Both the position numbers and the translations under genes were made by a program. From NCBI RefSeq assembly GCF_021028975.2, contig NC_059429.1, positions 20,398,001 through 20,462,000 of the forward strand: a DNA stretch of 64,000 bases, given 5' to 3'. This DNA is from Sphaerodactylus townsendi (lineage: Eukaryota). This document shows positions 11,006-56,904 of the stretch, one piece after another (position 1 is the first letter of the stretch; each line of letters starts with the position of its first letter). Under the pieces are notes generated by a model. It did not search any database. It saw only the letters and a program-made list of their open reading frames with translations, and had not been told where the DNA came from.

Positions 11006-11047
11006 TCACATGACTGCGCATCCTCTAGAGGTCGTTTTGGGATCCCC
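11006..11047 (-). CDS. LMNB2: Lamin B2 coding exon 12 (GDPKTTSRGCAVM*, CaaX box)
   Basis: Polypyrimidine tract and TAG acceptor, 42 nt, CAVM followed by TGA. Confidence 0.96.
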   Translation of the reverse strand, partial: GDPKTTSRGCAVM

Positions 11048-11816
11048 CTAAAACAAAAGGAAAAGGAATTGAGTTTGGAAAAGGGACCATGAGCACCAGC
11101 TGCTCCTCTAGCTTGAGGAGAGACTCAAGGCAGTCCTCACAAGGATAAGAAAGGTAGCAGCTGAACCCGAGGGCTGCTCAACATTCTGCAGTTCCAGCAT
11201 GTGTGTGGGGAGAGACCCTGAGCCCCCAGTAAACTCCACCCCCCTTCAGCTGAAGGGCTCAAACCAGACCCTGCTCTGCAAGCCAGACTCAGTGTGCTCC
11301 TTTCTATACAGCTGCTGATTCTCCTCAGACTTGAAATGCCAACATTTCTGTTTCAGCCAGAACCTCAGTGCAGAGAACTGCGTTTGGCTGTGCTCAGCTT
11401 AAGGAAGTTCACATCAGGCAAAAGTCCTGCGGGAATCTGCAGCCAGAGGCTACGTGGACGTAGCAAAGAACCCTGCCCTGAATTTCTCACATACGGTCCA
11501 GGACTGAGAGACACAGGAAGGCGCCACATAGCAGAGGCGAAAAAGGTAATACCAACTATTAAGTGAGAAATTTGCAATGCTCATTACTGCAAAACCAGCT
11601 TCCTTTGTTAAAGGGGGGGGGGGAGAGACCACCACTCTTTCCTGCCTTCACAGCTACAGAAATGTGACATTCTGGAAACCTTAAACTTTTAACAGTTTAG
11701 AGGCCCAGTCACCCCAAAGACGGCAAAAATAGTTTGCCCCTTCCGCATCTGACAAAGAGAACTTGGAGGTTGGAGCACTCTTTTGACTGGGCAAAGCAAA
11801 ACACCCTTTGCGCTAC

Positions 11817-11918
11817 CTGCTGGTGGAAGAGGTCTTCCTCCCCAAACTCTGCCTCGTCTTCTTCCTCCTCATTCTCCCGAAGAACACTGGACTGTGTCAA
11901 GCTCCTCACGGCTACTTC
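11817..11918 (-). CDS. LMNB2: Lamin B2 exon 11 (EVAVRSLTQSSVLRENEEEEDEAEFGEEDLFHQQ)
   Basis: AG/GT boundaries, 102 nt, acidic tail of B-type lamins. Confidence 0.96.
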
Positions 11919-11954
11919 CTAAGAACGAGAGACACAAGTTGCGATGCTATGTAA

Positions 11955-12444
11955 AAACTGCACTCCGTAAGAATTGGGCACAATTGGTACATTGCATTAT
12001 ACTCTTTAAGAGGACATGACGATGTGTGGAAGACCTGGGTGCCAATTTTAAACAACTTTCTAATTCCTCAGAAATTGTATTGATCTTTTTAATGTATATC
12101 TGAAGTGTTATATCAAATTGGCTAATTATTTGTTTTTGTTTACAGACAACTGGTCTCAATCATAAAAATGTTTCAATTGTAATTTGTACCCCAGGAATTA
12201 ATACACTGTATTATTGTTTTACTTTTGACCACTGACGAAAGCCAGCAGGCCAAAATGCATCTGATTTTAAGGGTCAAAAAAGTGTGCCTTTGTATACTGT
12301 CATTGTGATATTGTATACATAAGGCAGGCTATCATGGGCCTTCTATAACACGTTGATGATTTTAATTTGTAATAAGTACATATTTTTTTGATACTCAGAG
12401 GTTTATATTTAGTGGCCCTTTTAATTACTTTTAGGTATTTAATT
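11955..12444 (+). mobile_element. AT-rich insertion, probably a Penelope-like 3' fragment, with a decayed hammerhead motif
   Basis: Flanked by a ~63-66 bp direct duplication. Contains CTGACGA-AA-GCC-AGCA-GGC-CAAAATGC at 12232-12258. Confidence 0.55.
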
Positions 12445-13450
12445 CTGAGTCAAGCCGTTTTCAGCTACTTCCTAAGAAAAAAGAGAGACACAAATTGCAA
12501 TGCCATGTAACAAGTGAACTCAACAATCTGCACCAATATCACAAAACATTGGGACTCTCAGAAAGTAAGTGACCCAGAAAAAGAATTATTTAGTTTTTCG
12601 TTCTCTCATGCCAAAGTGTCAGCCGCCTACAGAATTACAGACCCCCCAGGAGGCTCGGATTCAACCAGAAAACTTTCTCCATTGTTCCAGAAATAGCAGT
12701 GGAATTCGATGGCTTTCAGAACAAGACACGCGCTTTAAATTAGTGAGCTGTGCAGGGGTCAGAAACGACCGACTGATTTAGATTCTCACCCCCCACTCCA
12801 CGATCATTTCACCTTCCCCTTCAAATCTCTCTCCACCCCCCGACTTCCACGTCTGCACCCTGCTTTGCCCTCCCTGAAGTGGCTTCTGCACCAGCAATCC
12901 CAAGATTCTGCAGCCAAAGGACCTCAAGCAAAATCTGCAGACTTGCAGGACAGAGAAAAATTAATCACAGGCCTAGTTATGAAGCAGTTTTAAGGACACA
13001 GGGATCCACTCCTGTTTCCATTAAGAGACATACAAATACCATGTCAGAGTGTCTGTGTTTGCTTAATGTTTGCTCTCTCGTTACACCTCTTTGGGTTAAG
13101 GGTTGTTTCTTTCCTTCTCTCCTTTTCCCATGCTGCCAACTGCAGATAATTAGAAGCCTCTCTGGCGTCTTCCCAGGAAGGGGGGTGGGCAGGTGGCCCT
13201 CTATCTCTCCAACGGCCTTGGGGTGTGGGCATTCGAGGGGACAAAGCGGAGGTCAGGTGTGCAAAGAGTGAGAACTGGCTTTAGCAAAGCCAGGTGCACG
13301 CGGTTCATTTCAATAAAGATTTCTGAGCTACAAAATCCAGAGTCTGTTGTTGAATGAGGTCGCAGACCTGACATACCAACATACCGGCCAGCAACTGTGT
13401 TGCATCCACTCCCCATTTTGCTCTCAGGTTGCTGCTCCACAGCCACCTAC

Positions 13451-13570
13451 CTCTCCATCAGAGTTCACCAGGTAAGTGCGGATGTTGGCTCCAGTGCCCC
13501 AGCTCCCCTGGCTCTTCCACACAAGGACCGATGGCGGACTGTGGGCCACTCCAGCATCAGCAGCCCAGAT
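13451..13570 (-). CDS. LMNB2: Lamin B2 exon 10 ([40 protein letters not shown])
   Basis: Lamin tail Ig-fold sequence, AG/GT, 120 nt. Confidence 0.97.
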
Positions 13571-37799: not shown

Positions 37800-38079
37800 C
37801 TCCAGACTAAGTGGGCAAGGAAATGTACATGCTGAAAAGCATTGCAGAGATCGACCCTTGAGGGGCTCCACATACCAAAGGATATTGTGTCGAGACCCTC
37901 TCTCCTAGCAAACACTGTTTATCCCCAGTCTTGGAGAAATGAGATCGGCCACTGAAGGACTGTTCTCCATGCCCCAGTTTCAGCAGTGGGTCAAAAGTTC
38001 ATGACTGACCTTGTCAAACGTTGCTGAGATATCAAGTAATAACCACAGCCTTGAGCCGCCCCAATCCAGCTGACTACAG

Positions 38080-38227
38080 CAGTGACGAAGGGAGGGAAAC
38101 CACACCAGAGACATGAACTGCCCATGTGCCCACCCCATCCCTGCCACGCCCCACCCCCGACACGTGACTCCAATGGTAGCGCATGGGGAAAGCTGCCCCA
38201 GATGTCCCCAATGCAGCTCCACCTCTG
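38080..38227. mobile_element. Short hAT MITE nested in the L2
   Basis: CAGTGACGAAG...GCTCCACCTCTG with a perfect TSD GACTACAG. Confidence 0.8.
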
Positions 38228-38573
38228 GACTACAGAGATTGTCTCTGAGGGAAACCAGTACAGTCACAGTCCCATGACCAAGCTGGAAGCCAGATAGAAA
38301 TGGATCCAGTGCCAATATGTCCTCCAAGAAATCCTGGAGCTGCTTTGCCGCCGCTCTCTCAACTACCTTACCCAAAAACAAAAGACTGGATATGGGGGAG
38401 TAGTCGGCAGGATCAAAAGAGTCCAGAGATGTTTTTTTTTTTAATCTGCCTTGACTGGGCTGAACCTGCTCACCTTTGGGCTACAGCCTCCTTGCCCACA
38501 GCTGTCCAGTTTGGCTTTCTCAGTCTACTGAAACTTCCATTTGCCTCTGAATTACCCTCTTGCCACTGTGGGC

Positions 38574-54800: not shown

Positions 54801-56618
54801 TCAAATCATTTTCATGTTGAACTTCCTGGCACCACCTTGGCCCGCCGTCGTGGTCGGGCCGTCCACCTTACGGAAGGAGTACTCCACAGAGAAGTTGTTC
54901 TTATGCTGTCCACGGCCCCGGCTCCAGACAAAAAGGAGGAGGAAGCAAAAGAGGACCACACCTAAGAAAGTGATGCAGCCCATGGCCGTGGACACCAAGA
55001 TGGTTTTGAGGTCCAACGTAAACTTTAAGAAAACATGTGTGTTGTTGTGAAAAGTATCGTTGAACTCGCTGAGGTACAAGGTCCTGTTTGCATAGAGGGA
55101 ACTGTCAATGGAATGCCCTTTGACTGTCAAGGTGGCAAAGTATGTGTCATTGCCCCCCGCGTTACTGGCAATGCAAATGTAGGTGCCACTGTCTTGGACC
55201 TGGGCATAGCGGATTTCTAATGTCCCACTAGGCAAGACGGTGGCTCGCCCAGCAGTCTTGGTGGTGATCATCCTGTGCTGAGGAGACACCCAGATAATAG
55301 TTGGGATGGGGTCCCCATCGGCCCGACACAGAAAGGACACTGCCTGCCCTTCGTAAGCTGTGATATGCTGGAGCTTTCGGTCCCTTATTTGGGGCTTTTG
55401 GCAGGTGAAATATTCGAAGAGGACAGAGTCTGGGAAATCTTGCAGGGCGTTCCCCTGTATCTCAGGTGGCGAGGAACACATTGGAGGTTGTCCGTCAAAG
55501 TTCAGCGTCTTGCGGCGCTGAAGGATCCAGAGGAGACGGCAGTCGCAGACCAAAGGGTTCCGGTCTACTCTGAGAGTTTCCAGTGTGTTCACCGAGTGGA
55601 AGGTGCTTTCTTCCAGAGTGGACAAGAAGTTGTTGGATAGATTGACGAGGCGAATCTGCCTCAAGCCAAAGAGCGCCTGAGGTTCAACCAAGACCAAAAG
55701 GGCACCCACCATGTGGAGCTCTCTAAGCCGAAAAAGATCCTTGAAGGCCCCCTTGGGCACAGTGCTGATGGGGTTGTAGGACAAATTGAGGTACATGAGA
55801 TGGACCAGGTTCCTCAAGGCAGCTGTGGGCACCACTGTGATATTGGTGTAAGTTATGGAGAGGGAGGTGAGGTTTAATCCCTGGAAGCCGTTCGGTGAAA
55901 TGTCCTCCAGGAGCGGCCAATTTTCAACTTCCAGCTGCCAAAGATTATAAAGCTTCTTAAAGTTCTGATCATCTATTGAGGCAACGCTGAGGTGTCGGAG
56001 GCGGAGGACCTCTAGGTTTTGGAGGCGTGAGAGGGATTCGGCTGAGATGCCGGTCAGGTTACACTTCTCTATGGTCAGCTGCTGAAGACTGACCAGGCCG
56101 GAGAAAGCCTTTCGGGAAATATACACCAAGTCATTGTCTCCCACTTCCAGGGTCTTCAGATTCCTCAGGTCTTGAAAGACGTAGTCCAAAAGGATGACTA
56201 ATTTGTTCTCACTTATGTCCAGAAGAGTGAGATTGGACAGTTTACTGAAGACACCCAGTGGGATCAGTTTGAGCTGGTTGCCGCGCAACCGCAAAGTCTG
56301 CAGGTTGAGGAGATTACTGAAAGCCCCCGGTTCCACATTTGTGATGATGTTCTCACTGAAATCGAGCTCTTCCAGTAGAGGATACGGGGCCAAGTCCCCC
56401 GAGTTCAGGCAGCGTATGCGGTTCTTGTTCAGCTCCAGGATCTTTGTTTCTGTTGGTATCCCCTCAGGTATGGAGGTCAAGCGCTTGCGGTGGCAGATGA
56501 CCGACTTGATCTGAGGGACGCACTCGCAACGAGCTGGGCAAGCGGCAACCAGGGCAGTGCTAAGGAGAACGCAGTGGAGGACCAGGACCGGAAGACAACA
56601 TGTCATTGTGTAGTGCAT
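54801..56618 (-). CDS. LINGO3: Leucine-rich repeat and Ig domain-containing Nogo receptor-interacting protein 3, single coding exon, 605 aa
   Basis: Signal peptide, LRRNT CPARCEC, LRRs, LRRCT NPLVCDCRL, Ig domain, transmembrane helix, C-terminus GQGGARKFNMKMI. Motifs NRIRCLN, LRGNQLKLIP and DQNFKKL fit paralogue 3. Splice acceptor TCTTCCAG at 56653. Confidence 0.95.
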   Translation of the reverse strand: MHYTMTCCLPVLVLHCVLLSTALVAACPARCECVPQIKSVICHRKRLTSIPEGIPTETKILELNKNRIRCLNSGDLAPYPLLEELDFSENIITNVEPGAFSNLLNLQTLRLRGNQLKLIPLGVFSKLSNLTLLDISENKLVILLDYVFQDLRNLKTLEVGDNDLVYISRKAFSGLVSLQQLTIEKCNLTGISAESLSRLQNLEVLRLRHLSVASIDDQNFKKLYNLWQLEVENWPLLEDISPNGFQGLNLTSLSITYTNITVVPTAALRNLVHLMYLNLSYNPISTVPKGAFKDLFRLRELHMVGALLVLVEPQALFGLRQIRLVNLSNNFLSTLEESTFHSVNTLETLRVDRNPLVCDCRLLWILQRRKTLNFDGQPPMCSSPPEIQGNALQDFPDSVLFEYFTCQKPQIRDRKLQHITAYEGQAVSFLCRADGDPIPTIIWVSPQHRMITTKTAGRATVLPSGTLEIRYAQVQDSGTYICIASNAGGNDTYFATLTVKGHSIDSSLYANRTLYLSEFNDTFHNNTHVFLKFTLDLKTILVSTAMGCITFLGVVLFCFLLLFVWSRGRGQHKNNFSVEYSFRKVDGPTTTAGQGGARKFNMKMI

Positions 56619-56904
56619 TGTCTCACGGTTGCACTACCATTTTCTCACACACCTGGAAGACAGAGAGAGACAGGAAGATAGCCGCTTAAAACTGGTTTAT
56701 GATAACGTTAGGGCTCTGCGAGTTCTCTCAGGGTTCAGAGCCAAAATGTATGTGCATTTTGCCAAGCGTGTTCAGGGAATCGCAGGTTTGGCAGAAGGGT
56801 GCTGTCTTCATCCCCAGGATCCTTTCCCCCCTGGCCTCTCATTAGCTGATACTGCACTGGGAGTCCCACAACTCTCTCAAGTGAGTAACATTAAAATAAA
56901 TATT

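Follow-up and report, generated by a model that had tools for sequence, protein, structure and literature searches.

A duplicated intron 10/exon 11 junction in gecko LMNB2 as a probable silent pseudo-acceptor, apparently left by a repeat insertion with a long target-site duplication

Introduction

Lamin C is an abundant LMNA product that has no CaaX motif and diverges after the immunoglobulin (Ig) fold. Transposon-derived pseudo-acceptors and intronic-polyadenylation exons, for their part, present a strong-looking AG that is ignored in normal splicing. These two kinds of system bear on the locus described here, in which a lamin gene, a mobile repeat and a second splice acceptor come together.

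With regard to the repeat, a hammerhead motif, an inverted truncated neighbour and an optional tail are among the traits listed for Penelope-like elements (PLEs) in excerpts of several papers (PMC8557442, PMC4209133; also PMC7761336), and an excerpt of a preprint states that reptiles carry non-autonomous PLE derivatives (bioRxiv 10.64898/2026.07.22.740005). The target-site duplications of PLEs are given as 8-10 nt or absent in the available part of PMC3846280. Much longer target duplications, of 126 bp for R9 and with a median of 900 bp for Dualen-4b, are described for these LINEs in the corresponding part of PMC9977147. According to an extract of PMC11167929, the enzyme of an Anolis PLE cuts and extends both strands in vitro.

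Here we analyse the LMNB2 gene of the gecko Sphaerodactylus townsendi, in which the junction between intron 10 and exon 11 is present in two copies flanking a repeat. All positions refer to the window, that is, the whole stretch of 64,000 nt that was analysed (contig NC_059429.1, positions 20,398,001 to 20,462,000).

Results

LMNB2 is encoded on the minus strand by 12 exons, running from 33295 to 11006, and their translation is exactly that of P0002, a protein labelled gecko lamin-B2 by its source. Exon 10 (13451-13570; residues 515-554; donor GAG/gtaggt) finds its best match among solved structures in lamin B2 (2LLL, 60 bits, versus 49 for lamin A and 47 for lamin B1); the same search with exon 11 alone returned no match. 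Exon 11 (11817-11918) contributes the acidic tract and the β-strand that is predicted to close the Ig fold (residues 555-565), and the coding part of exon 12 (11006-11047) ends in the CaaX motif CAVM and a stop codon.

The earlier note on this DNA had placed two copies of the intron 10/exon 11 junction at 11892-11954 and 12445-12510, around an insertion of ~490 bp. The duplication itself was borne out: the segments 12521-12445 (77 nt) and 11965-11892 (74 nt), both read on the minus strand, are identical at 60 of 77 columns (BLAST E 8e-11), with a local score of 90, whereas 1000 shuffles reached no more than 48. However, the copies reach ~11 nt further than the note had it, to 12521 and 11965, and the insert between them (12444-11966) measures 479 nt. 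The upstream copy (12445-12521) consists of 50 nt of the end of intron 10 and 27 nt of decayed exon 11, and the downstream copy (11892-11965) of 47 intronic nt followed by the opening 27 nt of exon 11; the 50 intronic columns contain 7 substitutions and one 3-nt gap, and the 27 exonic columns 7 substitutions. The local alignment ran on to 12573/12020, but this part is repeat sequence and the extension was discarded. A genome search with the segment 12440-12800 as probe found the junction sequence at these two places only (2 of 2 candidates).

The two copies thus provide two acceptors, 553 nt apart. The one in use is in the downstream copy (AG at 11920-11919), with a yTnAy branch-point match at -34, and its frame reads EVAVRSLTQS. 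The upstream, spare acceptor has, as claimed, kept its AG (12473-12472; first exon base 12471), and it opens a pseudo-exon frame that reads EVAENGLTQN followed by a stop (12471 to 12439, minus strand), the final codon and the stop being supplied by the insert. It was also correct that the pyrimidine tract of the upstream copy is the longer one (18 versus 15 pyrimidines in 20 nt).

The insert (11966-12444) is an old repeat copy, presumably lying in the plus-strand sense, antisense to LMNB2. A search for its family gave 517 candidates, and the 40 of them that were scored contain 76 matches, the long ones at 70-82% identity; similarity between the insert and other family copies ends at 12444-12446 on one side and at 11963-11970 on the other, directly at the edges of the duplicated junctions. 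Fifty distinct places were analysed: 30, the window copy included, and then 9 more came from this search, and 11 from a second one, in which 19 of 30 loci repeated places already in the set and were dropped. The p-distance between the insert and the 49 other copies is 0.129-0.219 (median 0.185). Family ends fall into two classes ~40 nt apart, at 1430-1459 (21 of 72 alignments) and at 1470-1489 (30 of 72) in the coordinates of locus L002, and paired pieces often differ by the same ~40 nt at their ends (e.g., 1478/1435 in L021 and 1435/1478 in L071). At 12444 the insert has the common end of the family; at 11966 it is truncated, presumably on its 5' side. An adjacent inverted piece accompanies 15 of the 50 copies, and in L021, L023 and L024 its junction lies at the end away from the tail. 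The copies form clusters of 300-1200 nt, single or as inverted pairs, in loci of 2.5-3.5 kb. Whereas non-LTR retrozymes occur as tandem arrays, the gecko family consists mostly of dispersed single copies, and tandem head-to-tail hammerhead arrays were found at none of the 50 places. The insert was also considered as a MITE or internal fragment; this reading was dropped because terminal inverted repeats were absent from nine loci and one end of the insert is the common end of the family.

Several features point to a Penelope-like origin. On its plus strand the insert carries a decayed minimal type I hammerhead-like motif (12227-12266; core box 12232-12238, stem II 12240-12251), which is predicted to be inactive, since A replaces G at core positions 10.1 and 12. 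In the plus-strand sense of the window, the core is intact in 9 of the 50 copies; the opposite strand gave 1, and 200 shuffles gave 2 at the most. The core pattern used for this count was checked against an excerpt of PMC4209133. In 20 copies, the three named hammerhead helices pair in 89% of cells, versus 27-39% when slid, and these 20 copies show no covariation in the helices beyond that of shuffles. Rfam returned nothing at gathering score for the window, and its hammerhead models had no match at E up to 10 in 11 loci, where only hairpin-type and weak chance matches appeared; single-strand folding did not produce the hammerhead in any of three copies. A linked reverse transcriptase or GIY-YIG frame was found in none of the 60 longest of 96 open reading frames near 49 copies, and the 17 GIY-YIG loci had no DNA in common with the probes. 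The lack of such frames is to be expected of a family that is old and non-autonomous. On these sequence features, and as no coding partner could be linked to it, we regard the insert family as no more than a likely non-autonomous PLE derivative.

It should be noted that 3 of the 17 GIY-YIG matches (L081, L085 and L087) have nearby another hammerhead-like motif, distinct in sequence, which is also found in L010 (1140-1329), within a 95-nt inverted repeat of 98% identity. These four loci probably belong to a younger Penelope-like family.

The length of the duplicated junction is unusual for such an element. The two copies differ by a p-distance of 0.189, close to the median of 0.185 between the insert and its family, and a second case is provided by L014, in which a 94-nt duplication (L014:1042-1135 and 1574-1667; 82 of 94 positions identical) is flush with the repeat at both ends. 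The 94-nt unit of L014 sits in a different host repeat (35 matches), of which five of five paralogues hold the unit once, with collinear flanks, and thus represent empty sites. Flank pairs scoring at least 80 and abutting both ends were found in 2 of 50 true pairings (1 of 49 without the window), versus 2 of 2450 mismatched ones. Shorter duplications, of 14-17 nt, flank four further copies, and a fifth has a match at 25 of 29 positions, while duplication went undetected in 43 of the 50 copies. No empty allele of the LMNB2 site was listed in sequencing runs X1-X4. The flush ends, the equal divergence of duplicate and insert, and the parallel in L014 together indicate that the LMNB2 duplication is a target-site duplication, which upholds the proposal that the insertion had generated an unusually long one. 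Long target duplication therefore recurs in this family, although it is exceptional (2 of 50).

Judged by its tract, the spare acceptor looks strong, as had been supposed. In a crude, home-made model trained on the ten other acceptors of the gene, it has the highest score of all (10.75, versus 4.75 for the true acceptor and 2.3-8.8 for the other ten), and none of 1404 intronic AGs scores as high. Its AG-free zone is also the longer one (45 nt versus 26 nt). An extra T in its tract segregates in runs X1 and X3, as expected of slippage. The sequence that follows it is of another kind. The 102 nt after the spare acceptor have 4 GAR triplets and a GC content of 29%, compared with 13 and 55% in the true exon, and no good donor lies within 500 nt, the best in the insert scoring 3.4 versus 7.9-12.6 for the true donors, which were the training set of the donor model. 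The ATTAAA motifs that had been placed at ~12420, ~12362 and ~12090 are present, and there is one more: four occur within 12088-12443 on the A-rich antisense strand of the insert (minus strand; 12443, 12425, 12366 and 12093). That strand contains no AATAAA, and the stretches 15-55 nt after the hexamers contain 19-31% T. Over the AG, the two copies share an identical core of 15 nt, which chance can account for (p 0.10, or 0.11 when the run alleles are counted), and the p for the AG being kept is 0.64; there is no sign of selection on the core of the spare acceptor. At 11910 each of the four runs departs from the assembly, and at 11943 and 11959 the three DNA-like ones do; the run alleles at 11910 and 11943 bring the true copy closer to the spare one.

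Although none of the runs is recorded as RNA, X4 is spliced, and it shows canonical splicing in use in one sample. Exon 10 is joined to the true exon 11 at 11918 (joint 11917-13450, depth 1309, GT-AG), and exon 11 is joined to exon 12 (joint 11046-11816, depth 1532, GT-AG). The junction 13451->12471, which the earlier note had proposed as a search target, is absent from the 15 joints listed for X4 at contig level, a result that weighs little for rare forms, which contigs drop. Across 12471 runs an unbroken contig (12024-12765) with a depth of 5.95, versus 2.3-6 for the neighbouring contigs of intron 10. Depth ceilings derived from X4, to be read as a hint only, are ~0.9% for long forms, 3-9% for short terminal exons and 25% for a 43-nt cassette; X4 is one run of contigs, with tissue and library unrecorded and decay unblocked, and contig depth is a poor measure of expression. 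A raised X4 depth in some bins of the insert was discounted, as it coincides with loose ends from other repeat copies. The isoform suggested in the earlier note, whether CaaX-less or poison, thus lacks support as an actual product.

As a separate observation, an X4 contig at 11234-11845 runs from exon 11 into intron 11 with a depth of 16.5, compared with the 2.3-6 of the intron 10 contigs. It is probably unspliced RNA, and read-through past exon 11 would stay in frame without exon 12.

A protein made through the spare acceptor had been envisaged as having an intact Ig fold, which is contradicted by the domain limits. The Pfam lamin-tail domain ends at residue 560, alignments of solved domains reach 561-576, and the last strand in the AlphaFold model (555-565; pLDDT 90 over 551-560) is encoded wholly by exon 11. 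The spare exon, in which 7 of 27 exonic bases are changed, replaces V558, R559 and S560 with E, N and G. The first two of these sites are near-invariant: among 120 lamin B2 relatives listed, 101 continue with EVA after exon 10, and of these 100 have V as the next residue and 100 have R thereafter. The tail that the spare exon would add after exon 10 is found in none of the 120. Because the altered V and R lie in the last predicted strand, the Ig fold would be expected to lose its intactness, and we infer from the model that it would be damaged in such a product. The loss of the CaaX motif itself may be of lower impact, given that mice with nonfarnesylated lamin B2 are healthy according to an extract of a review (PMC7529418).

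Discussion

The reading that we favour, and that we hold to be probable, is that the upstream junction copy is a silent, neutrally decaying pseudo-acceptor left behind by the antisense repeat insertion. It resembles transposon-derived cryptic or polyadenylation exons in that a strong AG and tract beside the poly(A) hexamers of a repeat are ignored in splicing, and it differs from them in that the spare acceptor does not come from the element but is a copy of the gene's own junction, created by the insertion. The spliceosome picks the downstream copy in X4, probably by exon definition: this copy precedes a purine-rich 102-nt exon with a good donor, whereas the spare one precedes AT-rich, donor-poor sequence. 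We infer that the spare acceptor is silent in other tissues as well. The locus offers a natural test of 3' splice-site choice, having two once-identical acceptors of which the weaker-looking one is used.

We consider it likely that the family sometimes makes duplications of 75-95 nt, and that an insertion into a coding exon of lamin B2 was rescued by one such duplication. The element would have inserted between two staggered nicks separated by ~75 nt, of which one fell within exon 11, 27 nt in, and the other within intron 10, ~50 nt in. Gap filling would have duplicated the target in such a way that the downstream side kept the branch point, the tract, the AG and the entire exon 11, and the insertion would thus have come to lie inside a lengthened intron. 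As a full acceptor would have been rebuilt in front of an intact exon, the hit on the exon was likely tolerated, so that the duplication probably rescued it. The activity of the Anolis enzyme on both strands (an extract of PMC11167929) is compatible with such a two-nick geometry.

The family agrees with described PLEs in its hammerhead core, which is of the minimal type I and has an additional base ahead of stem II and a G-C closing pair, as well as in the tiny helix III, the 5' truncation, the adjacent inverted piece, the optional tail of ~40 nt, the short target duplications of some copies and, as far as the excerpts cited above go, the reptilian host. It differs in that no reverse transcriptase or GIY-YIG frame is linked to it here and in that the window motif is decayed. 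A further difference is in the target duplications, which are 74-77 and 94 nt in the gecko family and 8-10 nt in the Adineta PLEs, according to the part of PMC3846280 available. Like R9 and Dualen-4b, for which distant staggered nicks are the explanation given in the corresponding part of PMC9977147, the gecko family can have more than 50 nt of host sequence flush on both sides; R9 and Dualen-4b are, however, LINEs of a rotifer and an alga, whereas here the element is Penelope-like, the host is a vertebrate, the long duplication is exceptional (2 of 50), and one duplication spans a splice junction. In the open-access literature, we found no prior report of long PLE duplications, nor of such a rescue of an exon. 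A vertebrate Penelope-like family with duplications several-fold longer than the published PLE ones, as far as the excerpts show, would bear on a poorly understood insertion mechanism, and the lasting point of this locus concerns transposons rather than lamins.

The view that the spare acceptor is silent has to be weighed against two ways in which it might be used. It may be used at a low level as splicing noise, the products being removed by nonsense-mediated decay and having no regulatory role; they would be either an exon 11 that is 553 nt longer or a cassette of 43 nt ending at a GT at 12428, and in both the stop at 12441-12439 would precede a later junction. The spare acceptor does have the strongest score in the gene, if only in the crude model, decay would hide such transcripts from steady-state RNA, and the X4 ceilings leave room for them (0.9% for the long forms and up to 25% for the 43-nt exon). 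Against this, the donor at 12428 scores 2.6, versus 7.9-12.6 for the true donors on which the model was trained, and the contig across 12471 is unbroken, with a depth (5.95) like that of the neighbouring intron contigs (2.3-6), and we regard noise of this kind as unlikely. Far less likely still is that the spare acceptor and an ATTAAA form a regulated alternative last exon, which in some tissue gives a stable CaaX-less lamin B2 ending in EVAENGLTQN. The in-frame stop, the strong tract and the four ATTAAA would suit such an exon, the depth hint bounds short terminal exons only at roughly 3-9%, and the product might be tolerated in view of the healthy mice with nonfarnesylated lamin B2 (PMC7529418, in the part cited above). 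However, no such product was seen in X4, none of the 120 relatives has such a tail, the V and R that it alters, each present in 100 of 101, lie in the last predicted strand, the core gives no hint of selection, AATAAA is lacking, and the downstream sequence is poor in T. We also give very little credence to the whole reading in which Penelope-like 75-95-nt duplications, the rescue of the exon and tissue-specific use as a lamin C-like, CaaX-less lamin B2 are all combined.

Two further explanations concern the origin of the duplication, of which that by double-strand-break repair or template switching, with the capture of a piece of repeat, is compatible with a silent acceptor. The junctions do show short overlaps (AG at 12446-12445 and GAG near 11965), and only 2 of the 50 family copies have a long duplication. 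Yet overlaps of 2-3 nt are easily due to chance, one end of the insert is the common end of the family, duplicate and insert are equally diverged, and other family members have duplications too, one of them long and flush and several short; such an origin seems improbable to us, and target-site duplication remains the preferred explanation. As to an assembly artefact, which the earlier note had named as a refuting outcome, runs X1-X4 all stem from one study, which may be the source of the assembly itself, and no single contig spans the whole stretch. However, both copies and the junctions are traversed by contigs of three samples (X2 records 11 and 13, X3 record 19 and X4 record 28), no joint that skips the insert is listed, and the copies differ at 17 of 77 columns (19% diverged). 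An artefact is therefore not supported, and its likelihood is next to nil. Around the spare acceptor, in 12393-12642, 12 differences and 7 gap letters were counted in X3 record 22.

Compared with lamin C, the hypothetical product of the spare exon would likewise end early and without a CaaX motif. Lamin C, however, is abundant and diverges after the Ig fold, whereas this product would diverge inside the last strand and was unobserved in X4. A CaaX-less lamin B2 made from the spare exon would, if true, be new as far as the literature listings go, but it is unlikely. Four turtle lamin B2 annotation models (P0065, P0066, P0072 and P0075, from two Gopherus species, Dermochelys and Pangshura) have a common alternative end after exon 11, VPVKDVP.[RK]AFCNPCS, in which there is no terminal CaaX, and in which the Ig fold and the acidic tract are kept. 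Because both are kept, these predicted models may be a better lead than the gecko locus for a lamin C-like isoform of lamin B2.

Some other features of the window may be mentioned. Within intron 9 of LMNB2, the segment 14024-14353 contains nested direct and inverted repeats of 30-53 nt that are MITE-like. Upstream of the gene, a weak RVT_1 match on the minus strand (37983-38480; E 2e-4, under the curated cut-off) may represent a decayed retroelement fragment. The minus strand also contains an open frame of 610 codons (54804-56633) that encodes leucine-rich repeats and one Ig domain, an architecture that we take to be LINGO-like.
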